The translations under genes were made by a program, and so were the position numbers. Positions 6,306 through 63,415 of a DNA stretch of 64,000 nucleotides are shown one piece after another. Under the pieces are notes generated by a model that did no database searches, was not told where the DNA came from, and saw nothing but the letters and a program-made list of their open reading frames with translations. Source of the stretch: a virus (Duplodnaviria; Caudoviricetes); the IMG/VR virus record IMGVR_UViG_3300031994_000053, positions 1 through 64,000 of that record; one strand, given 5' to 3'. Each line of letters begins with the position of its first letter. The stretch's first letter is position 1.

Positions 6306-6324
6306 GCCCCCGCGAGGGGGTTTT
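6306..6324 (+). terminator. Intrinsic terminator with GCGA tetraloop
   Basis: GCCCCC-GCGA-GGGGGT-TTT, same loop as the 5736 hairpin. Confidence 0.6.
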
Positions 6325-6480
6325 CCCCTGGCCCGGAACCCGTTCCGTATCTAGACGGGGCCTGGCCGGGGCCGGCGCCTCGGCGTTTCGACGGGACACC
6401 GGGGCTTTTTGCCCCGGAGGCTCGCCCGGGAACGGGGGCGGAGGCCTCGGAGACGCGGAGGCGGCCCCGGGCGCCACGCC

Positions 6481-39491: not shown

Positions 39492-40114
39492 GGAACGAAA
39501 AGATACTGGAGATCGTCCGCGGGATGAACAAACGGCTCCCCGAAGAAGCCGACGGGCTTGCCAACGTCGACGTCGGCTGGTGGAGAGACGCCTGCAAGAA
39601 GCTCGAAGCGGCGGCGTCCGACAAGGGCAACTGCGGGCAGATCGACAACACGAGCTACTACAGGCTGCCCGACGGGCGCCAGCTCGAGGACTTCATCTGG
39701 GACCGCGGGCTGTCGTTCGCGGAGGGCTCGGCGGTCAAGTACCTCTACCGCGCCGGGCATAAGGACGGGGAGTCCAGGGAGAAGGACGTCGCGAAGGCGA
39801 GGCACTACGCGAGGTTCGTGGCCGCAAGGGAGCTCGACGCGGAGGACAACGTCTGGGGCCGGATTGTCGGTCTCGTCGAGGCGGCGAGGTCTTTCAGGCA
39901 GGCCGCGGGGCGCCCGCCGTTTTCCAAGGTCCTCGGGAAGTTCCTGTCGAGCGGGCCCATGTGGGCCTGCGTCTCGCTGCTCGTCGCGATAGTCGCATTG
40001 GGCGTCGCCTGCAACTTCCCGTGGTCGGCCGTTCCGGCCGTGGCGGCCTGCCTATTCTGGCTGGGCGCCGAGTGGCGCCTGGCCCGGAGGCGCGCCGCCC
40101 CCGGCCTGCTCTGA
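39488..40114 (+). CDS. DUF3310-domain protein with C-terminal TM helices
   Basis: SYY...LEDFI...FAEGSAVKYLYRAGHKDG...DVAKARHY; two hydrophobic segments at the C-terminus. Confidence 0.75.
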   Translation: MRNEKILEIVRGMNKRLPEEADGLANVDVGWWRDACKKLEAAASDKGNCGQIDNTSYYRLPDGRQLEDFIWDRGLSFAEGSAVKYLYRAGHKDGESREKDVAKARHYARFVAARELDAEDNVWGRIVGLVEAARSFRQAAGRPPFSKVLGKFLSSGPMWACVSLLVAIVALGVACNFPWSAVPAVAACLFWLGAEWRLARRRAAPGLL

Positions 40115-41317: not shown

Positions 41318-44300
41318 TTACCTTCCCTCCCCCTCGAGTTCGTAGAACCCCGCGGCCCGCGGGTGCTCCCTGAAGAATTCGAGATCCGCCTCAGTGTACT
41401 CTTCGGGCGTCTGCACGACTTTGATGCCGAATATGGTATCAGGTATCTTGTCCGTCGCGAGGAAATTGCCGAGGGCGGCGCCGCCGTTCGCGGCCTCGCG
41501 GACCTCCGGCCCGTACTCGATCGCCATGTTCGGGTTGGCATACGCCTGGCCGAGCATCAGGTACATGGCCCGCCCCTCCGCGTCACCGACCCGTGCACCG
41601 GACGACTTCACGCGCGAGCGCATCGACGCGACGGCCCGGTCGAACGCGCCCCCGAGCCGCAGGGCCGCACGGGCCGGGCGGTTCAGCGATGCGCTGTCAA
41701 ACGGCGCCGACGGGTCGTACTTCATCAGCGCGCGGAAGAGCTCGCCGTAGTACTTGGCGAGCAGTTCCTGCGATGTGCTCTTCATGAGCGCGGCCGGGTC
41801 GTAGCCGTTGCGCCGCGCCTCGAGCAGCACGTCGTTGACCTTCGCGTACCGGCCGCGCCCGTCGCCGGTCGCGTAGCCGCGCCGGTCGTTCCGGGCCCAG
41901 AGGTCGAGCTGCTTCGTCAGCTCCTTGCCGAGCGCGGTCTTCGACGCGCCGCGCTGCACCGGCAGCGCCATCGAAACGAAACCGGCGTCCCGGTTCCGGG
42001 TCATCCCGCTGAACGAGAACGGCATCCACGCCTGCATGAGGTTCCAGGTCGCGCCGTCCACGGTGGGTGAGAGCCAGCGCTCGGCCCAGCCCATCTCGCT
42101 CCACGGGAGCGCCTGGGCCATGTAGCCGGGGTTGAACCCGAGAATGCCCTCGGTGACGCGCTGGGCCGGCATCGACAGCTTGGACAGGAATTGTCCGATC
42201 GGATCCTCGAACCAGCGGACCTCCTCCCACCCCTGCTTGCCGGCGTGGACGTAGACCCGGCGGTTGTACGACCCGTTGGCCGGATCGTCACCCATGTACA
42301 GCGGAATGAAGTCCGGCGAGACGCGGCCGGCGGTTGCACCGAGCCCGGCGCCAACCAGCCCGGTGAGCCAGTTCCCGCCTCCGGCGTAACCGGCCACGGC
42401 GCCTGCCGCTGCGCCGGCGACGCCCGCGCCGAAGCGCCCGCCCCGCTTGAACGAGCGGAGCGCGCCCCCGAGCCGCGTGTCGTCGAACCGCGCGATGGCG
42501 CGGAGCAGCGGGGTTATGTCCGCAGACTTCCAGCGGGCGCGGTCCTCGTTCTGCCACGTGAACCAGACGTCGCGGTTGTGCCAGCTGTGGCGGTCGGCAT
42601 AGGCTGCCATCTCGAACCTGTCGCGCCCCCGCCCGTACTTCGCGAGGAATTCGGGCCCGCCCATGCCGGCGGTCGCCCGGGCGAACCGGACCTTCTCCGC
42701 GGCCGTGCGCTCCCTGTGGAACGCGGCGTAGAACTCCTCGTCGGACAGGCGGTCGTCGTCGTCCCCGTCCATGCCGCCCGCGGCGGCGTCGAGCACCTTC
42801 GCGAGCGCGGTGGACAGGATCTGGAGGACCTGCGGGAACCCGAGCATGACAAGCCCGAGCATCCGTGCCCAGCGCCCTATGTAGTGCGCGCGCTCCTGGC
42901 GGCTCGCGGTGTTCGTGCCGAACGCGAGATCCTCGAGGACCTTGCCGCCCCCAGCCTCCCACGCGCCGCGGGTCCACTGCCACGAGAACATCAGCACGTT
43001 CAGGAGCCTGCGGTTCGCCGGATGCGCCCACGAGTACTTCAGCGGGTCGAGCCCGCCGACCTCGGCGTTGATGTAGTCCGCGTACTTCTTCAGGTCGCGG
43101 ATCGGGTCGAACGCCTTGCCCTGGCGTTCGGCCAGGTAGCGGAGCTTGGTCGCGAGCTGCGCGGTCACGGCGAGCTTGGTCGCGTTGAGCGCGTAGTTGA
43201 ACGCCTTGTCCGACTGGCGGAGCGCGACGTCGCGGGCCATGCGCCCGAACTTCGCCGCGATCTCCGCGCCGTAGGTGTCGCGGATTATCCGCTTCAGGTG
43301 GTCGAGATCCCCCTGCGTCATGGCCTGCGCGTCCTCAAGCGGGCTCACGAGACTCGTGGAGGTCCGCACGCCGAGCGCGTTGGCCCAGGCGTACAGCTCC
43401 GCGAGGAACGGGTCGTTCGAGTCCATCATGTCGACGATGTCCGAGAAGCCCAGGAAGTTCTTGGTGATCCAGGCGGGGCCGCCCGGGAGCTTCCGCAGGA
43501 AATCGAACGCTTTCGGGTGCTCGCGCATGTAGTCGGCGATTGGTTTATAGTTCCCGCCGAGCGTGGCGAGCGCGCCGACCGCGGCGGTCGGGGACTCGAA
43601 CCGGGTCGCCAGCGGGAAGAAGAACGAGAAGCTCACGCTCATCGCCTTCGACCAGCCGAGGGCGCGGTGCAGGAGGGAGCGCGCGGCGGGGCCGCCCGTG
43701 CCCATCGCCCGGCTCGCGCCGAGGAACTGCTGGAGGTAGCCGAGCGCCTCGCCCAGGCCGAGCTTGTCTATCGCGAAGTCCGCGATTCTTCCGTGCGGTG
43801 CGGCCTCCTCGGCCTCGCGGACGAGCCACCGCTCCACCGAGGCGATCGAGGCGTTCGCGTCCTTGTGCTCGCGGTAGCGGCAGGCTGTTTCCGGATTTGT
43901 CCCGAGAACACCCTTGTTGGCCGTCATCTTCGCCCGCAGCGCGGCGAACTCCCGCTTGGCGTTCTGGACGCCCGACAGCTTCTCGTCGTAGGCGTCGCCG
44001 TTGTACTCACACCACCAGCGGGCCACGTTCTGCCAGAAGGCGTCTGGCAGGCCGGAGACATCGGCCGCGATGTCGGACGGGTCCGCGTAGTACACGGGCG
44101 CGCCGTCGTACGCGGGCGTCATCAGCATGTTCGCGAGAGTCGCCCGGGACATCATCGCGTTGGCGAGGCCGTCGATGGCCACGTGGACCTTGTGCCCGAT
44201 CTGGTAGTTGGCCGGAAGGGTCCCGGTCCGGCGGAACATGTCGAGGTCGTTCAGGCCGACCGCGCCGCCGAACAGCTCGCCCCTTGTGAGCGCCGCGTCG

Positions 44301-47300
44301 CGGTACGCGTCCACGACGTCCATCGCGGCGCGGTAGTCGATCCCGGCCTCCTCCTTCGTCCCGAACTTCGCGGCCCAGGCGTTCTGGAGGCTCTTCGAGT
44401 AGATGGCTTCCGCCAGGCCGGCGTAGGTCGCGTCCGCGGGGAGCTCGAGCCCGGTGCGCCGTGAGCGCGCGGAGCCCGGCTCGAACCCGCCGGCCGCGAT
44501 GAGGTCGATGAGAGGCTGCCCCGACACGCCGATGCCGTACAGATTGGACAGCATGTCAAGTCCGTTGATGACCTTGTCCGCCTGGAGGTCGCGGACGGGA
44601 ACGTCGGCGAACTCGGAGTCGACGACCGCCTTCATGCGCTCGTAGTCGCGGCTTGCGGCTCCCTGCCGGTCCGCCGCGCGGTCGCGGAGGGCGCGCTGCG
44701 CGTTGTACATGAACACGCCGGAGCCACGCCAGAACGGGAGCGCCGTGCCGAAATTGCTGAAGTACGCGCCGTCGCCGTGGGTGAGCCACGGGTGCGCCTT
44801 CGCAAACCTGACGGCCTTCGAGTAGACGGCCATCATGTCCTTGATTATGGCGTCCCGGTCGAGCATTTCCGGCTTGCGGCCGCCCTTGTCGGACGTGAGC
44901 TTGCGGTACGCCTCGCTTCCGAGGAACGCGTCGTTGATTTCATCGCACGGAATCGTGGCGGCCGCGGACGTGAACCGGGGGAGCCCGTCGACGTCGTAGC
45001 GGTAGTTGTCGCGACACATCCCCTCGACGAGGCCCCTCTCCCGCAACGCGGATATGACGAGCGCGTTGTAGCGAGCGGATGTCGGGCCACTGGCGCGGAC
45101 TAACTTGTCGCCATCGGCCTCGGCCATGGCCGCGATGGCGCTGGCCACGAACCTCCTGCGGTACGGTTCGAGGATTTCCGGGGGTATCTGGTCGTCCATG
45201 CGACGCAGGGCGAACGACAGCGCGTCGAGTTGCTCCGAGTTCGCCAGTCGCCTCGCTATCGCCTCGCGGGAGTAGAACGCGGGGTCACGGTTCATGCCGC
45301 CGTGGAACCGGATGTCGGCCACGCCAGTCACCACGCGGTCCTGGCGGGAGGCCCGGGCCGCGCACATCTTCTTGAAGATGTCGATGATCCGAAGGTCGGA
45401 TTCGGTCAGGACGATGTCGGCCAGCTGCCGGCGATAGTTGTCGAACTTGAGGTATTTCCCGCCGGCTGCCCACACAACCTGGCCGTCTTCGAGTGCGTGC
45501 GTCGCATCGTGCTCCAGCAGCTTCAGGATGCGCCCGCCGGCCTCGACATTGTCGCCGAAGAGGAAGGCGTGGAAGTTCTCGAGCCTCGCGATCTCGCCCT
45601 TGATGGCGTCGTACTCGTGCATCTCGGCCGATAGCATCTCGCCGATGTTGCCCTTTGCGCCGAACGACTTGCGGATGAGCGACCGTGACCACGCGGAGAC
45701 GTTTTCCGCGATGAAGCTGGACTGGTCGGAGTAGTCGACGAGCCCCGCGTCGCCAGCGAGGTTCGAGTCGCCAGCCGCCTGGGCCGCCAGCCACTCGGCC
45801 GCGGTGAGCCCGGCCGGGACGCCATGCCGCTCCCGCGCCGCCTTCTGGAACTCGAGGTCCTCGGGGGTCGCGGGCTCGGTGCCGGTCTCCCGGTAGAACT
45901 TCGCCATCGCGGCGACCTGGTAGGCCGCGGACACGCACGCCTTGAGGCCGCGCTGGAACTCGGGGTCGGAGACGAGGGCCCGGCGCCGGGCTATCACCGG
46001 CGCGTCGTCATCGTCGAGCAGCCGCGCCGTCGACACGTCGCCCCGCTCGTCGACCTCGTTCACCGGCACGAAGTCCGGCATCCGCCCGCGGGCGTCCGGC
46101 TTCCCGGCCCTCACGCCGGTCCACAGGGCGTGCATCACGCGGTCGATGGTCTCCGCCCCGTCCGTCTCGACGTACCGGGCGAGGCTTCCAGGGTCCTTCA
46201 CCATCGCGGCGAGCGCGTCCATCTGCTGCTTCTGGAACAGCAGCTCGGCGGCGAGCTCGCCCCCCGCCCCGTTCTCCATGGCGCGCTTCAGCCGTGTCCC
46301 CGCGGACGCCGCGGCCCGCGCCGCGACCTTCGACGGGGCAACCGGGTCGGAGGACGTTACCCAGGCGGAAACCTGGTACATGCTCGCGTGGCGGGCCTTC
46401 GGGTCGCGGCGGAAGTCACCGGTGATCTTGTCGTGGCGCGAGTTCGCGGGCTTGGCCTCGCCCGTCGCGGCGTCCACGTTGGTCCTCGTTATGAAGCTCG
46501 CCTCGAGCGAGTGGTACATCCGGAGCGCGGCCTGGAAGGCTATGCTGTCCCGGATGTCCTTGTCGTTCAGCTTGCCGAGGGCTTCGGGGTTCACGGTCGC
46601 GAGGGCGCGGCGCAGGCCGTTCATCACGATGACGCGGTCGCGGGCCACCTCGCGCGGGTCGGGCAGCGCGTACTTGCGCGTAACGTATTCGAGCCCGCGG
46701 CTCCAGCTGCCGTCGGTCTTGAGCCCGTGTTCCATTGATTCCCTGATCCACCGCGCCGTCGCGTAGAAGTCGTTGGAGACCGACAGCGGCAGCGTTCCGC
46801 GACGCACGTTCCCCGCCGCCGCGGAGGCATTGGCCGAGGGCGTGCCCGCCGGGTCGGCCGGCGTGGCCTCGAAGAAGTCCTCCGTGTCGGAGACGGGGGC
46901 GGCGTTCCGGTCGTCGGCCACGCTCCGGCGCGTCTCCGCGGACTCCGCGAGAAGGCGGCGGAACTCCGCGTCCGGGACGCGCTCCTCGCCTGTCAGCCTC
47001 CGCATGACGCGGAGGTCCGCGGCGCGCACCTTTTCGGCGGCCTCGGGGTTGGCCAGCGCGAACTTGTGCCAGCGCTTCGACCTGCCGAAGTCCGCTATCG
47101 TGTTGCCGAGGACAGGGGCCTCGACGTTCGCGGCGGCCGCGGCCTCGAGCTCCTCGGGGGTGCGGACAGTTTCCGACACGGCGGGCGCGAAGGCGTTGCT
47201 CAGGACCGACGCGATGGCGGTCTCGTCGCCCTCTTCGAGACGCGCGACGGAGTCGTACATGCCCGCTGCCTCGGCGATCGCGGCCTCGTCGTCCGGGTTC

Positions 47301-50300
47301 TCGCGGGCGCGCGCGGCCGCGGCCTCGGCGGCTTCGGTGCCCGCCGCGACGGCCGATGCGATGGCCTCCTCGTTCCGGGCCCGGCTTGTCTCCGCAATCC
47401 CGTGCACCACCATGTTGAATACGGTGTTGTCGGTGGCGAAGCCCTCGTCCCCGTAGTTGAAGCCATTCTTGAGGGAATCCCAAAAGCCCTTGAGGAAATC
47501 GAGGATGCGTTGGAACACCCCGCGGGTCTCCGCGCCGGCGACTCCGGCATCCCCCTCGACCCACTTGCGGAACGCCTCGGCCGCGGCTTCCTCGTTGAAG
47601 CCGTGGGCGCGGGACGGGTCCGTGCCGAACTGCTTGCGGAGCGCCTCGTAGTCAGCCTCCCCGAACAGCCCGATGGCCTCGAACATACGCATCATCGAGT
47701 GGAAGTACTCGTGGTACAGTTCGGTGCCCTTCGCCCCGGCAGGAAGCTGGATCGCGCCGACGAGCGTCTGCGCGCCCTTGCCGCTGAACGACCACTCGAC
47801 CTTGTGGGACGTGACACCGCCGATCGTCGCCTTGCGGGCGAGTTCCTTGCGGATCTCGAGCGGGAGGCGGGCGAAGTCGTCGGCCGTGAACGGCCGTTCC
47901 TTCGTGCCGAGGTTCACCGCCGCGCAGTACGAGGCCGCGAAGGCCCGCGAGTTTGCGAGGCGCTCCACGTCCTCCTCGGTCTCGGCGCGGAGGCCCTTGC
48001 CCGCGGTCTCGACCACGATGGAGACGCGGCGGCCGAGACCGGCGTTCCCGCGGAGCTTGCCGCGGATCGTGAACGCGGTGCCGCCGAGGTACTCCACGTT
48101 CGCCCAGGACGAGAGCAACCTGCCCATCGCCCTCGCGGCGTTGGCGGCTCGCTCGTCATATGCCCCCTTCGACAGGAGGGTCGGACGCGCCGGGGGTTCC
48201 GGCGCGGCGTTTGGCACATGTCCGACGTTGTACGCGTCGACGGCGTTCACCATGCGCTCGAACCGGTCGCCCGAGAACAGCTCGAGCGAATGGCGGAACG
48301 GGGCCTGGACCCTGCCACGGGGTTTTCCGGCGGGCGTCCGGGCCTCCGGCGCCATGTCGTTCGCGACGAGAATGGCGCGGGACTCCGGGCCCAGCGCGGC
48401 CTCGGACGCCGACAGCATCCGGTAGTACCGGTCCGGCAGGATGCCAAACAGGGACGGGGACGCGCCGGACGGCGTGCCGGTCACGCGGGACGTGACGAGC
48501 GAGTAGAACGGGAGGATCTGGCCGACCAGCATGGCCGGAGTCACCGCGTCTATGCCGTAGTTTTCCTTCAGCGCGCCGAGCGCCGCCTTGGCGTCTTCGG
48601 CCATTGCCTTCAGCTCTGCCGAGGCGTTGCCGGCTTCCTTGACGAGCGCGTCAACGTTATCCGCGGTAAGCGTGTAGCCTTTCGCCCGGGCGTATGACTT
48701 GGTGGTCGCGTTGGCCGCTTCCATGCCGTCGCCCTCGAATCCCACTGATACGCGACGTTCGCCCGCGTACGCCCGCCCCGCTATGACGTCGTCAAACATC
48801 GCGCGGACACGTTCGTTGGCCGCCGTGTCGTTCTCGCGGTACGTGGGGCCGATGCGAAGGAGCCCGTCGCCCATGCGGCCGTACGGGAAGTACTTGTGCG
48901 GCTTGCCGTCGGAGTCCTCGCCAAAGATGTAGTACGTCTGCTCGCCGTAGCCGGTGTCCCGGCGTGCGGAGATGTACGCGAACGCCTTGTTGCCGGCCGC
49001 GGAGTTGAATTCCTCCGAGGTCACGATGGACCGGTACATCATGCCGAACATGGCCTCGACGCCGCGGCGGAACGCCAGCACGGTGGGTGCAGGGGCCACG
49101 TCCTTGGTGGAGATTTTATCCGCGCGCTTTTCATATATGGCCGCCGATTGGAGATAAGCCTGTTTTTCTTCTCCTTGGGCCGATTCTGCGGATACGCGCT
49201 TATTAACCGCGGCCCTGCGGAGTTTCGCGGCTTCATCCGCCGCGACCGCGCGCCGGGAAACCTCGCCAGCCATCTCGCGCATCGCCGCGTACATTTGGCG
49301 ACCGTCCTTGAACACAGAGCCCGCCACGGGAAACGCGGCGAGGCTCGAGAGGAGTCCGTGCACGTACGGGAGCTGCTCCGCGTTGGACTCGATGTGCATC
49401 GCGTCCCAGGACTTGAGCCGGTCGGACTCGGAGACCAGAGGCTCCTTGGGGTCGGTTCCGTCGCGGTACGCGGTCATCGCGCCTGCCATGACGGTCTGGA
49501 GGCCTTCGCCCAGGGAGTATGCCATCCGCGTCGCCGCGTGCATTCTGCTCAAGGTCCCGGCCAGAGGTCCGAGTCCCGGGATTTCAACAGCCTTGGCGAC
49601 GTCAAAGGTCGCCTTACCATCTTCCGACGTAAACGCCTCGCGGACCGAATCGCCAAGCGCCGTGGCGTTGGGCGAGCCCGGGTCGGCCGTCAGGTAGTTG
49701 ATCGCCTGGCCGAACGACCGTGCGTCGTCAAGTTCGCACTTCATGCCGAACCACCGGGCGAACGCGGGGGCGGACGATTCGTGACCCGATGCCAGCCATG
49801 CGACATACCCGAACACGGGGTTGTGCCCGCCATCCTTTGCGAGCTCCGTTATCAGCTTCCGCCGTTCGGCCCGTTTAAGCCCGCTGTTCATGACAGTGCG
49901 GAACCACGCGGGGGTCGCGCTCCCGAGTTGCAAAGACCCCGACTCCCATGTAAGGTCCAGGGCCTTCTCCAGCCAAGCCTTTGTAATGTTGTTCGGATCC
50001 GCAGAGTCGCCGGCCACGGCCTTCGCCATGTCTGCGAATTTCGGTCCATTGGCGGCGCCACGGCGTGTGGCGGCCAACGCCCAGAGGAACCGGCCGCCAT
50101 TCTTGATGTCCTTGATGTACGCGCCGAGCACGTCGGCAAACGCCTGGTCCGTCACGGGCAGCCCGGAGTCCCCGGCCGCCACATAATTGAGGAGGTTCGC
50201 GTAGACACTTTCAAGCATCTCCCGCGTCCAGCCCAGACGGCCGCACAGCTGTTCCTTCACGTCGTCGAACGTCGCATTGGATATGCCGTCGAGATGGTAG

Positions 50301-53300: not shown

Positions 53301-56300
53301 TCTGCCTGTCGGAAGCTGCGAATCTTCTTGCCCGCCGCCCACCTCTGTCGGTAGGTTGTTTCATCGAACGACCCGCTTTTCAGTGTTTGATACGCGTGCT
53401 CGACGGAAACGTAATCATGCCCCTGGAAAGAGAATGGCCGACTCGCCAAATTGCTGAACTCGGCGTTTTCGCCCGTCCCATGCCAAACGTTTATCGGGCC
53501 CTTAGGCTGACTAACAGTTTGGGTCGGTTGCTGCGCAACTTGCTGTAGGGCCTCCACCGTCAAATCAACCTCGCGCGGTATCTGGAGCAGCGTGTTGGAC
53601 GAGTGGTCGCCAGAGAACAGCGGGACATAGTACGTCGTGCGCTTCTGATCACCGGCCATCGCCTCGTAGGAACGGCGGCAAGCCTCATACACTTCGTTCG
53701 GGCTGAAGCTGGCCGACAGGCACTTCGCGCAGATCGGGGTCCGCGCGGCATCCGGCCACGTGGCGTCCTGGCGGCACTCGGCTATGACCTCGTCAGTCAC
53801 GCCGGGGAAGAACCGGCGGCACGTCTCGGCGAACGTCGGGAGCGTGGTCCCGTCCGCGAGCTTCAGCGCGGTGGACTCGTCGGCGTAGAGCCAGCGCGAC
53901 ACGAGGGGCACGAGGTCCCGGGGCGCCACGGCTATCGAGGACGCCTTGGTCCCGCGCCGCTGGTCGATCTCGGCCGCCATGATGGTCGTGGGGAGGCTGT
54001 TCTGGAAAATGTCGAGGACGGAGAACACGGGGCTCTCCATCGCCACGCTGGACGACGCGCCGGCGACGCCCGCGGCCTGCGGGTTGCCGGTCGCGATGGC
54101 GGCCGTCATCACGGCGGATATGTCGGAACGCGACAAGTTCCCGGACATCCGGGACAGCGAGTCGAGCGCATAGGCTATCGTGTCGATGAACTCGACCGTC
54201 TGGGCCTTTGGCTGGTACTTTGTCTTGTCGGGGCGCTCGATTTCCGCCGGCACGGGCATTCCGTCCCGTATGCGCAACGCGGTCACGCCATTTGAATACC
54301 CGTGCGGGCGTAACGTAAGCGCCAAATTCTGCAACACCTCGGTCCGTACGCGGGCAAGCTGTGCGAACGCCATGTCGGAAGACAGCGCCGTGCAGAGCGG
54401 GGACTCGCGCCCGAACGCCTGCCCGATGATGCCGGACAGGACCCGCATGTTCTGCTTCACGGCGGCTATGAGCTGCGCGCGCGTCGCGTTGGCCGGTTGC
54501 TTGGGTGCCCAGCCGGCCGCGTCGTCGGCAGCCTTGAGCAACTGGTCCTTCAGTTCCCTTGCCTTGGCTGCGGGCCGCCCGTCGAGCTCGGCGAAGCTGT
54601 CGGCCACAAGGGACTCGGCGATGCGGCCGCCCCCGCGGGACTGTGCCTCGCGGATCACCATGCCGCCGCCCTCGTTCTCCTTGAGGGCTATCGGGGTCGC
54701 CGCGACGGAGTACGCCATGAGGCGGGCCAGGCGGAAACGCCCGTTCGGGCGCATCGAGGTCAGATAGGAAAGGAGGAACGCGCCCTTGCGGGACACGGGC
54801 CTGCCGTCCGTACCGTTCCCGAGGAGCGACCGGATGTACCCGTTGGCCTCCTCGCCGCCGAGCTTCAGGAGGTCCTCGCGGAGCAGGGCGTCGTGCTGCG
54901 GGAGCGACGCCCCCTCACGGTTGGCCCTCGGGTTGAGGATGCGGTACAGGAACTTCCCGGCGTCGCTGGGCGCCGCGTCGGCGCGCACCGACCCGCGGGC
55001 GAGGCGGACGAACCCTTGGAGGTTCGCGCCGGTTTCCGGGGACGCCTTCGCGGCGAGCGCGAGAAACGTGCGCATGGCGTCGGACGTGTACTCGTCGACC
55101 GCGACACGGTTGTAGTCGTCGGACGAAAGGCTCTCGTCGTCCTTCACGTCCTCGGCGAAGAACCACACGCCGGACGACGCGGCGTCGGACCAGTCCCCCC
55201 GGTTCCTCACGCGGTCGTCGTCCATGCGGGTGTACGCCGCCAGGACCTCGGCGCGGTCCGCGGCGTCCATGCCGGGGAACATCTTTCGGAGGACGCCGGC
55301 CACGCCGGCGCGATTCACGGGTTCGCCGCTCGCCAGAAGGGCGCGGACGGCGACCGCCGCGGCCGTGTCGGCCTCGCGGGGCTCGAGGTGTCGGCCGGCG
55401 GGGCCGACCTCCAGCCCGTGCATCACGGTGAAGCCGTCGAGGTTCGCCGCGTCGGGCGCCATCGCCGGGAGCTCGCGAGTCCCGCCGAACACCACGGTGG
55501 GGTCGTCTTCGAGCACGATGTCGTCGTTCGTCGTGTCGTCGTTCGAGTCGATGGCCGTCACGCTGCGCGGACTCCAGGTGGCTCCGGCGCGGCCGCCGAG
55601 GTCACTTGCGCGGACGACCCGCGCTCCCGTCTCGGCCTGGACCTTATCAAGATTTGTCGCAGCGTCCTTCGCGGCGTCATCGGCTGCCTGGTACTCGGCG
55701 CGTGCCCGGTTCACTTCTGCATTGAGGTCTTCAACAGATGCGCCGGACTCCGCGGCGGCTTCGGCCACGGCCTCCGTCCCCTCGACCCGTGCGGCGGCCG
55801 CGTCAAGTTTGGCCATCGCGTCAATCACATTCCTGCGGGCTTCGTTCCGTCTCTCCTCCGCGTCGACTTTTGCGTTTGCCGCCTCGGCCACGCGTTCCGC
55901 CGGTGTCTGGTCCACATTGTACAGCGCGCGCTTGATCTCGCCGAGCATCCCGCGGGCCGCCGTCTTCTGGGCCTCGGTGACGGTCGGGTCGGTCACCGCG
56001 TCCTCCATCAGCTTGGCCATGACCTTGGTGAACGCGCGCGGGACACTGCCCTCGCGGGTCATTTCGGCAGTCCTCTTGAGCACGCCGACGAGCCTGGACA
56101 TGAAGTTGAGGTGGGCTTCCGCGGCCTCCGCGGCCGTGGCCTTCGGGGTCTCGGCCTCCTTCGCCGCCTCCTTCAGCTCCTCGGTCTCCTTCGGGGACGC
56201 GGCCTCCCGCGACGCACCCTCGGACTTCAGCATCGATGTCATGCCCTGGAGCATCCGGTCGAGGAACTGGGAGTACGTCATCCCGGCGGGGAGCGACGCC

Positions 56301-59300
56301 TCCAGCGACTTCCTCATCGCCTCGGCGTCCCCGTCAGCCCACGCCATCAGGGCCGCGACGCCGCGGGGTTCGGCCGGGGCGGACTTGTCCCGGTTCGCCG
56401 CGCGGACGGCCTCGGAGAGGAACCCGTCGCCGCCAAGCACGAGGTCCGCCGTGTTCATGAAGAACGCGTAGGACGGCAGCCTGCGGGCGCGCTCGGCAAG
56501 GACCGCGGCGGCGCGGAGGAACGGGTTCTCCTTGTACTTCTCGGCGCGATTCAGCACGAACGCCGATACGATGCGCGCGAACCCCTCGCCGGTGAGTCCG
56601 GCTGTGTGGCGGGCCTCGTACCGGCCGTCCTCGGTCTCCACCACGACGTCGGAGCCGCGGAGGTAACTGTCGCGGAAGTTCCTGATCTGTTCGGCCAGCG
56701 GCACGTCCTTCGCCTTGTAGGCGTCCTCGATGGCCTGGTCGGCCACGGCGGAGAGCTGCCGGATGTAGTCCGCCGTGTTCTCGCCTGTCGCGCCGGTGGA
56801 CAGCAAATGCCCGCGGTTGAGGAACGCCCGGAGCATGACACCGTTCAGCACGGCATCCATCATGTCGGCGTTGACCGTCGGGTCAACCTGGATGAAGACA
56901 TCGGACGAGACATTGGCGACGCGGCCCGCGGACATCTTGAACGTGTACCTCGGGTGCGTGTACGCGGCAGCTTCGCCCGTGACGGCGGACGATCCGTCTT
57001 TCTCGACGCCGTGCCGCGTGAGGATGCGCTCGCCGACCGTCATGTAGCCAGTCTCGCCCCAGACGCGCTCCCACGCCTTGCGCTCGTCCGTGCCGGCGTC
57101 CGCGGTCTCCCCGCGCGCCGCCGCGGCGAGCTCCCTCGCCAGGACATCGCGCGCCGCGTCCTCCTCCAGCAACTCGCCCGATTCCTTCTGGCGGAGCATC
57201 GGATGGAGGCTGTCGTTCTGCGCGGAGACGCCGCCGAGCGCCCTGTAGTACTCGCCGGAGTAGCCCAGCTCACGGAGCGCGTGGAACATGTCGCCGAACT
57301 CGATGACCTTCGCCTGGGTGATGACATACCTTCCGCGCTCGCGGGCCCAGCCGTGCTCCACCAGGGACGCGACGGCCTCGTCACGGGTGCCGAAGGTTTC
57401 GGACGCCTGCCCGTCGATGCCGACGACCCACTTGCCGCCAGTCTCGCGGAGACGCGCGCGCTCGGTGCCGTTGGGCGAGAGCCTTGCGGCCATCCCGCGA
57501 AGGTCCTCCACGGGCTTCGAGTAGTATTCGGTGCCGCGGTCCCTGTCGGCCGTCAGCAACTTGGCCATCCTGAAGATCTCGTCATTGCGTGCGGCAAGGC
57601 CCTTTTCGGTGCCGTCGAACCCGCGGCGCATCGACTGCGCGACGGACTCGAACACAATGCCGTCGACATCCGACACGTTCGCCTTGCCCCCGATGTACTC
57701 GATCGCGTCGGCCGTGGCCGTGCTGACCGCACCCCCGCGAAGAATCTCGGCCAGGGGCACGTCGCCCTCGTCGGTGCGTATGCGGTGGAGCAGGCCGTCT
57801 TCGCCGACGATCCTCGCGGCGGCGTCGTACACGGCTATGGCCGCGAGGTCCGACCTCGAGTTCACCGCGTTGTCGACCGCCTGGACGACCTTGCCGTCCA
57901 CGTTGGCGCTATAGCTAAGGCCCCGGACGACAAGGTCCGTAGTCGCCCGCAGAATGTCGCGGTACGCGGCTTCCACCTCGTCCCGGTGCGCTTCCGCGAA
58001 CTCCTCCGCGGGAATGACGCTGGTTTCGTCAACGGCCGTCTTGTCCTCCGTCAGGCGGTAGAGCACGGGCTTGCCGTCGCGTATGGCGGACAGGTACGGG
58101 CGCGGGTCCGCCGGGTCCTCGTGGTGCGCGGCTGCGTACTCAAGGGCCTGGGACCGGAACAGCCCCTGGGAAAACGAGCGGAGCTGGCTGACGGTGGTGT
58201 CCGCGCGCATGATGTCGCGGGCCCTCTGGGCGAACCGGCGCTGTGCCTCGTCCAGGACTTGTGCCTGGGTTGGCTTCCCGCCTTCGGCCTTCACGGCCAT
58301 CTCGCGGCGCGTCCGGAGGTACTCCTCGCGGAACCCGCTCTTGAGCGCCTTGACGGTGTTTTCCTCCAGCCCCATGTCGCGGGCCGTCCACTGGGACGGG
58401 TTGACGGCGGCCATGCCGAAGTCGCCCGTGGCGAGCGCGGCGGCGAACCCGACGATCTTGTGCGCGGCGCGACGGTACCACGCGGGCTCCTCGCCCTCGA
58501 GGTGCATCTCGGACGTATAGAGGTCGCGGGCCAGCTCCGGCGCGTAGTCCGCAAGATTGTCGCGGGCGGAAAGCCCCGCCTCGGCGTCGCGCGCCGAATA
58601 GGTCGGGGTCAGCTTGTTCATGAGGTCGTCCGCCAGGAAGCGGCTCGGGATGAGTGGGACGGCGAGCAGCTCGCCGTTCGCCTTCGCGACTTCATCGACC
58701 GTGGCGGAGAAGCTGTTGTGGCGGGCCTCGCGGCGCTCCACGACCTTTGTCGTCTCGGCGATCTGCTCCTCCAGGTCCTTCGCCTTGGACTCGTCGCCGG
58801 CGGCACGGGCCGCGTCGCGAAGCGTCCCGAGCCGCTCGATCTCGGCGCGGTCCTTCTCCTGTAGCATCTCGTGAACGCCGACATAGTCGCTCCACGTCAT
58901 CTGCGCGGGGTTCGTGACGCGGTTCACCTCGGCAATGGCGTCGAGCCGCGCCCGCATCTTCGTCAGTTTACCCTCGCCGCCTATGGCGGACTGGGCGCGG
59001 AGAGCCAGGGTCCTGGTCACGCCGGGGATCGCGAAGCCAACGGCCTCCGCGACCAGCTGGTCCCAACCGGGAAGCGCGCCGGCCTTCGCGCTGGCCAGGC
59101 CGGCCTTGAGGTTGCGCCAGAACTTCTCCGGCTCGGACCGCCACTTCGGTCCGTCGGGGTTGGCGTCGAGGCCGAGCAGCCCGTTAACCACGTCGGCGTA
59201 GCGCTCCTCGAACATCTCGCCGAGAACGCCGTCGTAGCCGCCGGTCCGCCACAGGTTGAGCACGGATTCGGCGCCAAGGTTGTGGCGCGCCATGAAGTCG

Positions 59301-61165
59301 CCCAGCACGTACCGCATGTACGCGCGGTTCAGCTTGCCCTGGAACTGGCGGTCGTACATCTCGTCCAGGGCCTTGGCCGCGAACTTGCGGAAGTCATTGC
59401 CGATCGCGGCCTTCATCGCGTCGGGAAGCGAGGCGGCCGAGCCGCTCTCCACGGCGTTCCGTATAAGCGCCTTTCCGGCCACGTCCGTGACGCCAAGCTT
59501 CGCCGCGACGGCCTCGGCCTGCCTGCCGGCGGCCGCCCGCATGAACTCCTGGCGCGTGCCACCGGAGGACAGGATCATCTCGCGGAGACGCGCGCCGATG
59601 GCGTAGCCCTTCCCGTCGTCCGCGAGGCCCGCGGCCACGTCGACGAGACGGGACGGGGTGACAAGACCCTTCACGCCGGCGCGCTCGAGACCCAGGCCGG
59701 CCGCGTGGAAAACGGAATTCAGGCCGCGGCCGGTGTTCTCGGAAATGTACTCCATGAGGCCGAGGCCCATCGACATCGATTCGGCGCAGTCCATCAGACC
59801 CCAGTTCCCGGTGCGAAGGGCCGCGGCCTCGAAGGAAAGCCGGTTCTCGGTGACGACCCTGCCGTCCGCGCCCCAGAGCGCGCCGACGGCCGGGCGGGCG
59901 ACGAACTGGTTAGGCGCCCACATCATCGCGCCGCGGACCGGGGCCTCGACGAACCAGGCCCCCGCGGCGTCCGCGAGGGACTTGCCGATGGAATCGCGAG
60001 ACGTGTAGAGAATCGTGCTCTCCTCGGTGCCGTACGTGCCAAAGTCGAGGAGCCCGCGGGAAAGGTTGTGCGTGGCCCACTGCCCGAAGGACTTCAGGCC
60101 GCGGGCGACGGCGCCGCCGGACGTGCGCGACGCATACCGTGCCAACTCGATGCCGGCTCGCTTTTTCGCGAGCTCGCGGATGGCCTCGGAGGACAACCCC
60201 TTGTATGCGGTCTTCTCCATCTGGGCCTTGAGCATGAAGTTCGCGATGTCGTCCGCGACGCCGCTCTCGATGGCGGCCTTCGCGGCGTCGTCCGAAAGGT
60301 TGGCCAGCGTGCGGGCACCGGCTTTCGCCAGGGCCTCGCCAGCGGCCTTCTCCGTGAACTCGCGGGCGAGGATTTTCGTGGCGCGGTTCATCGCGAGGGC
60401 CGTGCTCTCGGGGAGCGCGCGGGACGCGGCGCCGCGGACGGCGCCGCCAATGAAGCTCGTAGCGGCGAACTCGGCCATGAAGCCCGGCGCGTGACGGGCG
60501 ATGTCGCCCACCGTGCCCATGAGCGTCGTGTTGTTGGAACGGTAGTCCTGCTCCGCCATGTAGAGGCGGGCGCGGATCAGCTCCTCGTCGGAGACATCCT
60601 CCTTGTTCCGCAGCTTACGGAATGTGTCGGAGACCATCTGCGCGTCGCGGAAGGAGTTGCGGACGCTGGCGATCATGCCGACGAACGGAAGGTCGGAAAC
60701 GGAGACTTCGGAAAGAGCCGTGAGAAAGCCACGCTTCACGCCGTCACGGGTCTTGCCCGCTATTTCGAGAAGCCTACGACCGTCTTCCGATCTCATCAGT
60801 TTGTCTCGGGAGACCGCACGGCCAAACACGTTGAGCGATACAATATCGTTAGATGTGAGGGGCAGACCGGCACGCTCGCCATAGGCGACGGTTCGGCTTC
60901 CGTCAAAATCCGGGTCAAGCGTATACCAATCGCCAGCCATCCCGTCGAACGGTACCGCATTCGGGTCAGGCGGGTCAGCATAGCTGATGCTCAAAGGAGC
61001 CACACGGGCGGCCTGCTGCGTGGCCAGCGTCTGCTCAAGAAGCGATTCCCGCCGGGCCGAAAGATATTCTGCGAGGGAACCGGGCTCGGCCCCGGAGCCA
61101 AACAACGGCTCGCGGGCCACGGCAAAGTCAGACTGCGATAAATCGGAAAAGGAAAAAAGGGCCAT
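41318..61165 (-). CDS. Giant (6615 aa) polyvalent ejection protein with putative two-barrel RNA polymerase, NADAR and zincin metallopeptidase domains
   Basis: Single uninterrupted ORF with GGAGG SD; RTP (R3324) and GCDHDGD (D3379-D3383); SVEHAYQTLK NADAR (about aa 2555-2680); HEYFH (H4485-H4489) followed by EEAAAEAF. Confidence 0.85.
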   Translation of the reverse strand: MALFSFSDLSQSDFAVAREPLFGSGAEPGSLAEYLSARRESLLEQTLATQQAARVAPLSISYADPPDPNAVPFDGMAGDWYTLDPDFDGSRTVAYGERAGLPLTSNDIVSLNVFGRAVSRDKLMRSEDGRRLLEIAGKTRDGVKRGFLTALSEVSVSDLPFVGMIASVRNSFRDAQMVSDTFRKLRNKEDVSDEELIRARLYMAEQDYRSNNTTLMGTVGDIARHAPGFMAEFAATSFIGGAVRGAASRALPESTALAMNRATKILAREFTEKAAGEALAKAGARTLANLSDDAAKAAIESGVADDIANFMLKAQMEKTAYKGLSSEAIRELAKKRAGIELARYASRTSGGAVARGLKSFGQWATHNLSRGLLDFGTYGTEESTILYTSRDSIGKSLADAAGAWFVEAPVRGAMMWAPNQFVARPAVGALWGADGRVVTENRLSFEAAALRTGNWGLMDCAESMSMGLGLMEYISENTGRGLNSVFHAAGLGLERAGVKGLVTPSRLVDVAAGLADDGKGYAIGARLREMILSSGGTRQEFMRAAAGRQAEAVAAKLGVTDVAGKALIRNAVESGSAASLPDAMKAAIGNDFRKFAAKALDEMYDRQFQGKLNRAYMRYVLGDFMARHNLGAESVLNLWRTGGYDGVLGEMFEERYADVVNGLLGLDANPDGPKWRSEPEKFWRNLKAGLASAKAGALPGWDQLVAEAVGFAIPGVTRTLALRAQSAIGGEGKLTKMRARLDAIAEVNRVTNPAQMTWSDYVGVHEMLQEKDRAEIERLGTLRDAARAAGDESKAKDLEEQIAETTKVVERREARHNSFSATVDEVAKANGELLAVPLIPSRFLADDLMNKLTPTYSARDAEAGLSARDNLADYAPELARDLYTSEMHLEGEEPAWYRRAAHKIVGFAAALATGDFGMAAVNPSQWTARDMGLEENTVKALKSGFREEYLRTRREMAVKAEGGKPTQAQVLDEAQRRFAQRARDIMRADTTVSQLRSFSQGLFRSQALEYAAAHHEDPADPRPYLSAIRDGKPVLYRLTEDKTAVDETSVIPAEEFAEAHRDEVEAAYRDILRATTDLVVRGLSYSANVDGKVVQAVDNAVNSRSDLAAIAVYDAAARIVGEDGLLHRIRTDEGDVPLAEILRGGAVSTATADAIEYIGGKANVSDVDGIVFESVAQSMRRGFDGTEKGLAARNDEIFRMAKLLTADRDRGTEYYSKPVEDLRGMAARLSPNGTERARLRETGGKWVVGIDGQASETFGTRDEAVASLVEHGWARERGRYVITQAKVIEFGDMFHALRELGYSGEYYRALGGVSAQNDSLHPMLRQKESGELLEEDAARDVLARELAAAARGETADAGTDERKAWERVWGETGYMTVGERILTRHGVEKDGSSAVTGEAAAYTHPRYTFKMSAGRVANVSSDVFIQVDPTVNADMMDAVLNGVMLRAFLNRGHLLSTGATGENTADYIRQLSAVADQAIEDAYKAKDVPLAEQIRNFRDSYLRGSDVVVETEDGRYEARHTAGLTGEGFARIVSAFVLNRAEKYKENPFLRAAAVLAERARRLPSYAFFMNTADLVLGGDGFLSEAVRAANRDKSAPAEPRGVAALMAWADGDAEAMRKSLEASLPAGMTYSQFLDRMLQGMTSMLKSEGASREAASPKETEELKEAAKEAETPKATAAEAAEAHLNFMSRLVGVLKRTAEMTREGSVPRAFTKVMAKLMEDAVTDPTVTEAQKTAARGMLGEIKRALYNVDQTPAERVAEAANAKVDAEERRNEARRNVIDAMAKLDAAAARVEGTEAVAEAAAESGASVEDLNAEVNRARAEYQAADDAAKDAATNLDKVQAETGARVVRASDLGGRAGATWSPRSVTAIDSNDDTTNDDIVLEDDPTVVFGGTRELPAMAPDAANLDGFTVMHGLEVGPAGRHLEPREADTAAAVAVRALLASGEPVNRAGVAGVLRKMFPGMDAADRAEVLAAYTRMDDDRVRNRGDWSDAASSGVWFFAEDVKDDESLSSDDYNRVAVDEYTSDAMRTFLALAAKASPETGANLQGFVRLARGSVRADAAPSDAGKFLYRILNPRANREGASLPQHDALLREDLLKLGGEEANGYIRSLLGNGTDGRPVSRKGAFLLSYLTSMRPNGRFRLARLMAYSVAATPIALKENEGGGMVIREAQSRGGGRIAESLVADSFAELDGRPAAKARELKDQLLKAADDAAGWAPKQPANATRAQLIAAVKQNMRVLSGIIGQAFGRESPLCTALSSDMAFAQLARVRTEVLQNLALTLRPHGYSNGVTALRIRDGMPVPAEIERPDKTKYQPKAQTVEFIDTIAYALDSLSRMSGNLSRSDISAVMTAAIATGNPQAAGVAGASSSVAMESPVFSVLDIFQNSLPTTIMAAEIDQRRGTKASSIAVAPRDLVPLVSRWLYADESTALKLADGTTLPTFAETCRRFFPGVTDEVIAECRQDATWPDAARTPICAKCLSASFSPNEVYEACRRSYEAMAGDQKRTTYYVPLFSGDHSSNTLLQIPREVDLTVEALQQVAQQPTQTVSQPKGPINVWHGTGENAEFSNLASRPFSFQGHDYVSVEHAYQTLKSGSFDETTYRQRWAAGKKIRSFRQADTRTNVQLMRDLVFESFRQNPEAKRALLDTGSATFTHTQDRGIWATEFPKALSEARQRLRQETPAATQPSDKKHVPSYEEASKAVYRAIGMALMGVDAKRSAISSLEATGVGMVGTRVGQDGNRTWGENRIHVGENFRFYDGDFSFGGENGYAKKPNEALLGSTFMRGYAARALKETAQDPSSSLLKVHLISTQGRDLFFGKSLSVATSSGSGEFAPGSADRAIDDYLAKYRGADDLSTDVFTDRDSYKIGPLSSKSITVTVKAIVGGQERKYGGTLMKVIYDLAFDKAVDGKFSKGDLKDGERKQVLFDELDKALRTAFGGGVSGDQLDAMFGDIAVKDDVRGESTMKLSELLPGAELRYLPGLSGPALDFSYREDGAMAYPVANVSHNSRLPNVPGRSPRNYEVDMATMATALARFGALDNAPGLAQKALGLIADWGVFANAVYSNPEYVRSVTRRARHFNELREAGESAGGQFAREELARQVWAEIRQASNLPLGGVDMALVSSGAALDDNGKLFTMSASQMQRDVMRGSCLYSKSERGFYGADRNFALCNVNYSQRNFRYAWFLDEGKFRTAFDSEISGALLDYTKDHEGVLTSGQLVALGIARVFENLRGTKDRGERSALRRRIAECFKDHHGRYISDIPGAADNFGFDDLFRDDPKGTGAQVFDLTAVMCESRDQIFNDATGQKHIVLGGTMFGLPRTPSYNGSMWLQVVRAGLPATEIEEKDTKGKTLGWRVGADAMVQPDPFTNQLLGCDHDGDKTKAYLLYQSWTGQLPEAEIPQYQGDPDKIENNPDGVRALLTEAATFRADKKTRKFLEAWRYDPESDTEKPVDEATEAGEDVYYKISEDARRRVSNTFVKALFEMARHMPVHAAVDQEGNKLQLVDRFSSENSGVPRETFLAPDGLVSAPTKAFPVSGAAAEELRHDMLPPTLSNEDKRDLGDPKVAAEVSTSAKDAGDARGIAVALARNLHLAWLASDAFPRMFRNNAGLSENWWKFAYHLDGISNATFDDVKEQLCGRLGWTREMLESVYANLLNYVAAGDSGLPVTDQAFADVLGAYIKDIKNGGRFLWALAATRRGAANGPKFADMAKAVAGDSADPNNITKAWLEKALDLTWESGSLQLGSATPAWFRTVMNSGLKRAERRKLITELAKDGGHNPVFGYVAWLASGHESSAPAFARWFGMKCELDDARSFGQAINYLTADPGSPNATALGDSVREAFTSEDGKATFDVAKAVEIPGLGPLAGTLSRMHAATRMAYSLGEGLQTVMAGAMTAYRDGTDPKEPLVSESDRLKSWDAMHIESNAEQLPYVHGLLSSLAAFPVAGSVFKDGRQMYAAMREMAGEVSRRAVAADEAAKLRRAAVNKRVSAESAQGEEKQAYLQSAAIYEKRADKISTKDVAPAPTVLAFRRGVEAMFGMMYRSIVTSEEFNSAAGNKAFAYISARRDTGYGEQTYYIFGEDSDGKPHKYFPYGRMGDGLLRIGPTYRENDTAANERVRAMFDDVIAGRAYAGERRVSVGFEGDGMEAANATTKSYARAKGYTLTADNVDALVKEAGNASAELKAMAEDAKAALGALKENYGIDAVTPAMLVGQILPFYSLVTSRVTGTPSGASPSLFGILPDRYYRMLSASEAALGPESRAILVANDMAPEARTPAGKPRGRVQAPFRHSLELFSGDRFERMVNAVDAYNVGHVPNAAPEPPARPTLLSKGAYDERAANAARAMGRLLSSWANVEYLGGTAFTIRGKLRGNAGLGRRVSIVVETAGKGLRAETEEDVERLANSRAFAASYCAAVNLGTKERPFTADDFARLPLEIRKELARKATIGGVTSHKVEWSFSGKGAQTLVGAIQLPAGAKGTELYHEYFHSMMRMFEAIGLFGEADYEALRKQFGTDPSRAHGFNEEAAAEAFRKWVEGDAGVAGAETRGVFQRILDFLKGFWDSLKNGFNYGDEGFATDNTVFNMVVHGIAETSRARNEEAIASAVAAGTEAAEAAAARARENPDDEAAIAEAAGMYDSVARLEEGDETAIASVLSNAFAPAVSETVRTPEELEAAAAANVEAPVLGNTIADFGRSKRWHKFALANPEAAEKVRAADLRVMRRLTGEERVPDAEFRRLLAESAETRRSVADDRNAAPVSDTEDFFEATPADPAGTPSANASAAAGNVRRGTLPLSVSNDFYATARWIRESMEHGLKTDGSWSRGLEYVTRKYALPDPREVARDRVIVMNGLRRALATVNPEALGKLNDKDIRDSIAFQAALRMYHSLEASFITRTNVDAATGEAKPANSRHDKITGDFRRDPKARHASMYQVSAWVTSSDPVAPSKVAARAAASAGTRLKRAMENGAGGELAAELLFQKQQMDALAAMVKDPGSLARYVETDGAETIDRVMHALWTGVRAGKPDARGRMPDFVPVNEVDERGDVSTARLLDDDDAPVIARRRALVSDPEFQRGLKACVSAAYQVAAMAKFYRETGTEPATPEDLEFQKAARERHGVPAGLTAAEWLAAQAAGDSNLAGDAGLVDYSDQSSFIAENVSAWSRSLIRKSFGAKGNIGEMLSAEMHEYDAIKGEIARLENFHAFLFGDNVEAGGRILKLLEHDATHALEDGQVVWAAGGKYLKFDNYRRQLADIVLTESDLRIIDIFKKMCAARASRQDRVVTGVADIRFHGGMNRDPAFYSREAIARRLANSEQLDALSFALRRMDDQIPPEILEPYRRRFVASAIAAMAEADGDKLVRASGPTSARYNALVISALRERGLVEGMCRDNYRYDVDGLPRFTSAAATIPCDEINDAFLGSEAYRKLTSDKGGRKPEMLDRDAIIKDMMAVYSKAVRFAKAHPWLTHGDGAYFSNFGTALPFWRGSGVFMYNAQRALRDRAADRQGAASRDYERMKAVVDSEFADVPVRDLQADKVINGLDMLSNLYGIGVSGQPLIDLIAAGGFEPGSARSRRTGLELPADATYAGLAEAIYSKSLQNAWAAKFGTKEEAGIDYRAAMDVVDAYRDAALTRGELFGGAVGLNDLDMFRRTGTLPANYQIGHKVHVAIDGLANAMMSRATLANMLMTPAYDGAPVYYADPSDIAADVSGLPDAFWQNVARWWCEYNGDAYDEKLSGVQNAKREFAALRAKMTANKGVLGTNPETACRYREHKDANASIASVERWLVREAEEAAPHGRIADFAIDKLGLGEALGYLQQFLGASRAMGTGGPAARSLLHRALGWSKAMSVSFSFFFPLATRFESPTAAVGALATLGGNYKPIADYMREHPKAFDFLRKLPGGPAWITKNFLGFSDIVDMMDSNDPFLAELYAWANALGVRTSTSLVSPLEDAQAMTQGDLDHLKRIIRDTYGAEIAAKFGRMARDVALRQSDKAFNYALNATKLAVTAQLATKLRYLAERQGKAFDPIRDLKKYADYINAEVGGLDPLKYSWAHPANRRLLNVLMFSWQWTRGAWEAGGGKVLEDLAFGTNTASRQERAHYIGRWARMLGLVMLGFPQVLQILSTALAKVLDAAAGGMDGDDDDRLSDEEFYAAFHRERTAAEKVRFARATAGMGGPEFLAKYGRGRDRFEMAAYADRHSWHNRDVWFTWQNEDRARWKSADITPLLRAIARFDDTRLGGALRSFKRGGRFGAGVAGAAAGAVAGYAGGGNWLTGLVGAGLGATAGRVSPDFIPLYMGDDPANGSYNRRVYVHAGKQGWEEVRWFEDPIGQFLSKLSMPAQRVTEGILGFNPGYMAQALPWSEMGWAERWLSPTVDGATWNLMQAWMPFSFSGMTRNRDAGFVSMALPVQRGASKTALGKELTKQLDLWARNDRRGYATGDGRGRYAKVNDVLLEARRNGYDPAALMKSTSQELLAKYYGELFRALMKYDPSAPFDSASLNRPARAALRLGGAFDRAVASMRSRVKSSGARVGDAEGRAMYLMLGQAYANPNMAIEYGPEVREAANGGAALGNFLATDKIPDTIFGIKVVQTPEEYTEADLEFFREHPRAAGFYELEGEGR

Positions 61166-63412: not shown

Positions 63413-63415
63413 CTC

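Follow-up and report, generated by a model that had tools for sequence, protein, structure and literature searches.

The largest open reading frame (ORF) in the first 64,000 nucleotides of the Caudoviricetes (Duplodnaviria) virus record IMGVR_UViG_3300031994_000053 probably encodes a modular polyvalent virion protein, which carries a single-chain, DNA-dependent two-barrel RNA polymerase (RNAP) at its centre and is packaged into the particle and injected into the host. The ORF occupies positions 41318-61165 on the minus strand of this stretch (hereafter the window) and is open from ATG to TAA over 6,615 amino acids (aa), with a calculated mass of 718 kDa and a calculated pI of 5.8. An earlier note on this DNA had described the same 6615-aa frame, with a product of roughly 700 kDa, and had quoted five motifs from it (GCDHDGD, R-T-P, LKVH, FGKS and DSYKIG), all of which were found at the positions given with them. 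The GC content at third codon positions (GC3) is 0.88, a usual value for a coding frame in this genome of 66% GC. The window covers the initial 64 kb of the IMG/VR record, which is 89,878 bp long and estimated to be 94% complete, and the giant gene accounts for 22% of the genome. Public sequencing runs that contain the whole stretch come from one sheep gut metagenome sample only, which is probably the origin of the assembly; no RNA run is listed among them. Features below are given in window coordinates and lie on the minus strand unless stated otherwise.

The assignment of aa ~2700-3720 to an RNAP is strongly supported in silico, by residue conservation and by a predicted structure. An AlphaFold2 model of aa 2700-3720 (50006-53068), calculated from a 15-sequence alignment, reached a mean predicted local distance difference test score (pLDDT) of 76.8 and a predicted template modelling score (pTM) of 0.76. 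A Foldseek search with this model against 350,542 PDB chains returned the virion RNAP of the crAss-like phage phi14:2 (6vr4_A) as top match over the whole model (E 0.028, probability 0.96), followed by a runner-up with a probability of 0.03. The best PDB neighbours of the model are two-barrel RNAPs throughout: phi14:2 gp66 (6vr4_B) scored 8.3, its root-mean-square deviation (rmsd) being 4.7 over 557 residues, with model residues 5-1021 placed on chain residues 871-1698, followed by QDE-1 (7y7p_A; 7.4 over 394), gp62 of phage P74-26 (8f5m_A; 6.7 over 349) and maize RDR2 (7w84_A; 6.3 over 372). In BFVD, the model matches best to a viral protein without a name (E 9e-5), to parts of crAss-like giant proteins and to phi14:2 gp66. 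The predicted arrangement, two double-psi barrels that face one cleft, the beta-like one first and the beta-prime-like one second, is that of single-chain members of the two-barrel superfamily. The double-psi beta-barrel fold that had been expected around aa 2800-3400 is therefore borne out by the prediction, with crAss gp66, QDE-1, P74-26 gp62 and RDR2 as its nearest relatives.

Conservation within the RNAP region is highest, over a 60-aa block, in the second, beta-prime/Rpb1-like barrel (aa ~3300-3392; 50990-51268), which contains the candidate Mg2+-binding loop D3379-H-D-G-D3383 (51017-51031; D3379 at 51031-51029, D3383 at 51019-51017), with the canonical glycine at position 4, in the context LLGCDHDGDK. 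R3324-T-P3326 (51188-51196; R3324 at 51196-51194), which is part of a GLPRTP sequence and matches the R-x-P signature of barrel A, places R3324 55 residues upstream of D3379. The first, beta/Rpb2-like barrel (aa ~2784-2900; 52466-52816) holds the invariant residues K2808, H2810, K2823, D2865, D2867 and K2870, as well as S2876/K2877 in one alignment, and its motifs read LLKVH (K2808), FFGKS (K2823) and DSYKIG (K2870).

A single D.DGD occurs in the giant protein, and about 0.18 would be expected by chance in a protein of such size and composition, so that the motif alone is not significant; its significance stems from its invariance across homologues that are 27-45% identical. R3324, T3325, P3326, D3379, D3381, G3382, D3383, K2808, H2810, K2823, D2865, D2867 and K2870 are unchanged in all 16 full-length homologues. 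The same residues are invariant in the separate 15-sequence region alignment, in which every one of the 14 sequences spanning the loop has DHDGD. Conservation of DxDGD among homologues, proposed in the earlier note as a check, thus holds for both DHDGD and R-x-P in both alignments. Two-barrel RNAPs have eight residues in common, namely an aspartate and two basic residues on barrel B, and R-x-P plus DxDxD on barrel A (Ruprich-Robert and Thuriaux, PMC2919709). The barrel-A residues correspond to R446/P448 and D481/483/485 in Rpb1 and to R962/P964 and D1007/1009/1011 in QDE-1, and the barrel-B residues to D837, K979 and K987 in Rpb2 and to D709, R738 and K743 in QDE-1 (PMC2919709). In the giant protein, the barrel-A set, R-x-P followed by DxDxD some 35-55 residues further on, is present and invariant. 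For barrel B, the conserved candidates (K2808/K2823, K2870/K2877 and D2865/D2867) exceed the number required; the structure comparison yields ranges and not residue pairs. Both lysines of the pair K2808/K2823, which had been singled out previously, are indeed invariant, and K2870/K2877 are likewise conserved candidates for the two basic residues.

Beyond the barrels, a predicted 33-residue helix (aa 3567-3599; 50369-50467) starts 188 aa past D3379, compared with a spacing of 168 aa in gp66, and is a candidate for the bridge helix. A conserved DG.SN.TFDD.KEQ.C.RLG block (aa 3625-3645; 50231-50293), within which residues 3630-3643 form a further invariant block of the full-length alignment, is at the position expected for the trigger-loop region. 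In the model, these two elements would correspond to the bridge helix and trigger loop of gp66, both of which are included in the aligned gp66 range 871-1698. A scan for D.D[GIV]D motifs revealed no second two-barrel RNAP candidate in the genome. A D-N-D-G-D sequence at 62681-62695, in the 731-aa protein encoded upstream of the giant gene, is accompanied by no other sign of a polymerase and is probably due to chance.

Homologues of the giant protein, collinear with it, form about 80 clusters of 4,000-7,500 aa. A word-indexed search with residues 2700-3500 retrieved 79 clusters, almost all of 6,000-7,500 residues, on contigs of up to 102 kb. An exhaustive phmmer search with residues 2690-3800 over 1.84 billion cluster representatives returned only 55 proteins, all of which belong to the giant-protein family, the short ones being fragments. 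No stand-alone homologue of RNAP size was found, and the size class of 333-1,981 residues, searched with a profile, gave a single fragment. Related loci were not retrieved with a single protein query, while an alignment query detected 5 viral and 11 metagenome loci. Sixteen members, 27-45% identical to the query, were aligned at full length and are collinear over nearly their whole length; the 15-sequence alignment of residues 2700-3720 was built separately from DNA loci. All fetched relatives have a high GC content (57-72%). Neither blastn/tblastn searches with the RNAP region nor a tblastn search with the TerL of this genome produced a match among 50,697 GenBank phage records, and the family was not found in the literature searched.

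Several related loci differ in their organisation. In a 94-kb relative (L018:10001-29255), the giant gene is divided into ORFs of 4,347 aa and 2,052 aa with the break directly before the HExxH module described below, which may reflect either a genuine division of the gene or a frameshift in the assembly. A shorter form of 3,380 aa (L019:1120-13143) has its polymerase at residues 1136-2106 and sits immediately downstream of a gene for a reverse transcriptase (RVT_1); the C-terminal domain of the family was unmatched within the 16 kb fetched for this locus. Marine contigs of 35-37 kb and 33% GC (L017:1-3225, also L006 and L016) contain a very long open frame with FFGPRVPAHG ... ILGSDHDGD. The L017 frame matches the profile of the giant-protein family in hhalign with a probability of 72% (E 3.5e-5), in the catalytic barrel only, and these frames probably represent a separate phage two-barrel RNAP family of low-GC marine viruses.

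The polymerase is embedded in a chain with further modules. Immediately before it, a NADAR-like insert spans aa ~2521-2700 (53066-53605), with a Pfam match at aa 2566-2671 (PF08719, 26.9 bits, E 6.5e-6), a PHROG_1017 match (2.9e-9) and similarity to E. coli YbiA (2b3w) over 110 residues (E 0.004). The segment aa 2521-2700 is missing from most homologues and has a GC3 of 0.56-0.76, compared with 0.88 for the gene. With the RNAP core and NADAR, the protein combines several biochemically disparate domains in one chain, the feature by which Iyer et al. 2017 recognise polyvalent proteins. A 29-kb contig (L012, ~1640-2130) encodes a very similar NADAR located about 45 residues inside the polymerase region, not ahead of it, suggesting that the domain moves between sites in these proteins. 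The insert thus looks like mobile cargo. Elsewhere in the family, the cargo consists of DUF1848, ART-PolyVal, a RecD-like helicase, or RNase_T plus PD-(D/E)XK. The extra sequence of the relatives is found mainly in two slots, at residues ~4270-4340 and ~4600-4650, which flank the HExxH module.

The HExxH region (aa 4330-4640; 47246-48178) contains the invariant motif H4485-E-Y-F-H4489 and, about 36 residues further on, EE..AE with invariant E4525/E4526..A4529; H4485, E4486, H4489, E4525 and E4526 are unchanged in the 16 full-length members. A zincin-like 'MPTase' is fused downstream of N4-type virion polymerases and was proposed to be a self-processing protease (Iyer et al., PMC5512222). At the motif level, the HEYFH ... 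EE..AE pattern fits this MPTase, in which the HExxH helix is followed by a helix with a glutamate, and the region is a candidate for a zincin-like processing peptidase. The fusion to counter-defence domains suggested by the earlier note holds in part: one NADAR insert is moderately supported, and the HExxH motif is without Pfam or PDB support. A conserved N-terminal region (aa ~61-720; 59006-60985) includes an invariant YDG..EMFEERY block at aa 644-656 and matches no known family, apart from a weak protein-atlas lead to LPD22. The C-terminal domain (aa ~5640-6480; 41726-44248) is the most conserved part of the protein, with many invariant residues in the full-length alignment, and is mostly helical by prediction, with a hydrophobic segment at aa 6103-6121 and weak protein-atlas leads to LPD38 and LPD22. 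The AlphaFold2 model of aa 5600-6540 is too poor to interpret (pLDDT 53, pTM 0.32), and a search for shorter stand-alone relatives of this domain recovered only fragments of the giant-protein family.

The genome is divided between the two strands. Between ~8 and 39 kb, the plus strand carries replication-type genes, including those for a family A DNA polymerase (PolA), a helicase and a PD-(D/E)XK nuclease. Going from ~88.7 down to 40 kb, the minus strand encodes in this order a collagen-like tail fibre, TerL with an intein, large genes without family assignment, the giant protein and a lysozyme. The 421-aa lysozyme gene (40052-41317) begins with its ATG directly after the TAA of the giant gene; its product has an N-terminal phage lysozyme (Pfam Phage_lysozyme, 2.2e-10; PHROG endolysin), in agreement with the earlier placement of the giant gene before a lysozyme. 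For the helical internal-protein genes mentioned in the earlier note, the ORFs upstream offered no Pfam or PHROG match in support. In four relatives with genomes of 92-98 kb, TerL is followed by the giant gene and then by a conserved ORF downstream, all on one strand; one of these genomes has terminal repeats.

As the polymerase gene is co-oriented with and adjoins the structural, presumably late genes, packaging for the next infection makes most sense, as is the case for phi14:2 gp66. It is from this position, in the late TerL-strand block before the lysozyme gene, that we infer packaging and injection. The giant protein would be made late, alongside the structural proteins, and packed into the capsid. 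After entering the host with the DNA, it would transcribe the first phage genes without the host polymerase, as phi14:2 gp66 and N4 gp50 do. D3379, D3381 and D3383 on the second barrel would bind the catalytic Mg2+, while R3324/P3326 and the conserved lysine and aspartate residues of the first barrel would complete the active site. The conserved backbone would comprise the helical C-terminal domain and the HExxH...E module, which may cut the chain into working pieces. Lineage-specific cargo enzymes would be inserted at a few slots, and the NADAR domain present here could strip ADP-ribose that DarT-type defences have placed on DNA.

Several observations weigh against this interpretation. The phage is uncultured, and the protein is known here from its sequence alone. 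Pfam and PHROGs detected no RNAP in the whole protein, with matches limited to NADAR and PHROG_1017, and neither phmmer nor the family profile gave a relevant RNAP match among PDB sequences. An hhalign comparison of the family profile with gp66 residues 871-1700 gave a probability of 0.2%, and comparisons of eight segments of the giant protein with phi14:2 gp077-083 and gp097 all remained at or below 1%. For the first-barrel counterparts of beta K1065/K1073 and D814 there are several conserved candidates, among them both K2808/K2823 and K2870/K2877. The NADAR score of 26.9 bits is below the Pfam gathering cut-off of 35.1, and neither the HExxH region nor its profile matches Pfam or the PDB. 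Finally, the label 'late/structural block' derives from TerL, the tail-fibre-like gene and the lysozyme, the other neighbours matching nothing.

An alternative is that the giant gene encodes a functional two-barrel RNAP which is made in the infected cell for the transcription of middle or late genes, like P23-45 gp64/P74-26 gp62 and the non-virion RNAPs of jumbo phages, and that the rest of the protein has unrelated roles. This is unlikely, as the gene occupies the end of the TerL-strand block, beside the lysozyme gene and away from the replication and early genes. In addition, the RNAP shares its chain with ~5,600 more conserved residues and with cargo-type inserts, as in injected polyvalent proteins, and the searches described above gave no stand-alone version of RNAP size.

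The gene could also encode a protein of the tape-measure or tail-lumen type that has an RNAP embedded in it, comparable to the 5,002-aa gp96 of Thermus phage P23-45, in which case the polymerase would be delivered from the tail. In the giant protein, however, the RNAP is central and not N-terminal, and no tape-measure PHROG family matches any part of the chain. The gene order also differs: a 731-aa gene and not chaperone genes is found upstream, and downstream the lysozyme gene alone precedes the strand switch, without a distal-tail or baseplate gene. In structure, gp66 and QDE-1 are clearly nearer than gp96. This explanation was judged unlikely.

The chance is smaller still that the two-barrel module is not a transcriptase but a primase-like enzyme, an RNA-dependent polymerase (QDE-1, RDR2) or a catalytically silent scaffold: although its structurally closest cellular relatives, QDE-1 and RDR2, are RNA-dependent enzymes, and although DNA-dependent enzymes are marked by 'funnel' and 'switch 2' elements (PMC2919709) that are outside the present comparison, the invariance of the metal-binding and R-x-P residues across 27-45% identity argues for catalysis, gp66 resembles QDE-1 equally and yet is a DNA-dependent transcriptase of early genes, and there is no obvious reason for a double-stranded DNA phage that encodes a PolA to need an RNA-dependent polymerase. 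A packaged and injected transcriptase therefore remains the preferred interpretation.

Other features of the genome concern the neighbours of the giant gene. The 421-aa product of the lysozyme gene is lysozyme over its N-terminal ~160 residues only, and its C-terminal half (aa ~250-410) has counterparts with 54-65% identity in four relatives, where they form separate ORFs of 188-402 aa located 2-3 kb downstream of the giant gene. Since the relatives hold this half in separate ORFs, the lysozyme fusion and the in-frame TAA junction are specific to this genome, and readthrough of the TAA into the lysozyme gene was rejected as a conserved feature. TerL (genome 82961-85918) is 985 aa long, compared with open frames of 619-752 aa in four relatives, and its residues ~80-470 have PHROG matches to intein-bearing proteins, consistent with the intein. 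In the presumed structural block (genome 63859-82992), about 15 large ORFs (up to 1,218 aa) gave no Pfam or PHROG match, so that the morphology of the particle cannot be read from the sequence. Four minus-strand ORFs upstream of the giant gene (731, 152, 412 and 496 aa; window 61217-64000 to genome 66596) show a GC3 of 0.55-0.70, compared with ~0.9 for their neighbours, and no Pfam or PHROG match; they resemble a recently acquired module, perhaps one of host-recognition genes. A minus-strand gene at 3929-4957 consists largely of 9-nt-periodic GGN-rich repeats and encodes a collagen-like Gly-X-Y protein, and a second collagen-like protein is encoded at genome 85940-87934. In 1-40000, a search for a repeated early-promoter motif brought up nothing but chance pairs and the coding repeats of collagen-like proteins.

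Giant phage proteins that contain a two-barrel virion polymerase are already known as a kind, while the giant-protein family itself is absent from the literature searched and from GenBank phages. Virion-delivered two-barrel RNAPs have been demonstrated so far in crAss-like phages and in a Thermus siphovirus. The present proteins add an independent family beyond the reach of sequence search, from high-GC phage contigs, here of a sheep gut metagenome, that retains the cellular DxDGD loop, unlike the crAss DFD[IV]D, and embeds the polymerase in a protein that ranks among the largest recorded for phages. The compact catalytic core is amenable to expression and testing, and the protein offers a natural system for studying the packing, ejection and possible self-cleavage of a chain of ~6,600 residues. 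The insertion slots provide a map for loading anti-defence enzymes such as NADAR, which would be delivered ahead of gene expression. For phage transcription and virome annotation, these findings imply that transcription machinery may account for much of what viromes contain as 'unknown giant protein' sequence.

Compared with known systems, the giant protein shares features with several families. N4 gp50-type polyvalent proteins (PMC5512222) are likewise giant and presumed to be injected, with an RNAP in mid-chain, an HExxH peptidase-like module downstream and optional cargo (ART, lysozyme); relatives of the giant protein similarly carry ART-PolyVal and other cargo. The N4 polymerase, however, is of the T7-like single-subunit type, with a fold unrelated to two-barrel enzymes, and the likeness to the N4-type MPTase is one of motif, without a Pfam match. 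P23-45 gp96 has an N-terminal polymerase with a tape measure as the remainder, whereas the polymerase of the giant protein is central and its context unlike that of a tape measure; P23-45 gp64/P74-26 gp62 is a non-virion RNAP. QDE-1/RDR2 and YonO-like RNAPs have no sequence similarity to the giant protein and differ in their biological roles, and YonO is not among the structural matches listed.

The nearest structural relative of the RNAP is phi14:2 gp66 (PDB 6VR4; GenBank gp077), which is encoded at the end of the structural block and was confirmed as a virion protein by proteomics. At 2,180 aa, close to the ~2200 aa cited in the earlier note, it is three times shorter than the giant protein. 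The catalytic loop is DHDGD with an invariant glycine here and DFD[IV]D in gp66 and all crAss-like phages, and the barrels are ~400 residues apart, compared with a ~140-residue connector in gp66. The NADAR and HExxH modules are a further difference. At BLAST-level sensitivity (BLASTP), neither the TerL nor the putative portal of this 66% GC genome is similar to its phi14:2 counterpart. The marks of crAss-like membership, namely sequence homology to gp66, the DFD[IV]D loop and, at the same sensitivity, the Crassvirales signature genes (TerL, portal), were thus not found. Because of the missing sequence similarity, the glycine-containing loop, the wider barrel spacing and the dissimilar TerL and portal, the protein was not filed as a member of the crAss family.

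The transcription/cargo block of phi14:2 amounts to ~6,900 aa over six genes. It is conceivable, albeit speculative, that the high-GC phages of 90-100 kb are a deep lineage in which a whole crAss-style block of this kind was fused into one programmable injection carrier of ~700 kDa. In such a carrier, the N- and C-terminal modules would serve packaging and the crossing of the envelope, the DxDGD polymerase would start transcription and possibly pull the DNA in, the HExxH protease would release the parts, and the slots would swap anti-defence enzymes (NADAR, ART, helicase, nuclease) by horizontal transfer. By analogy, the giant protein may work in the same way as the virion RNAP family of crAss-like phages.

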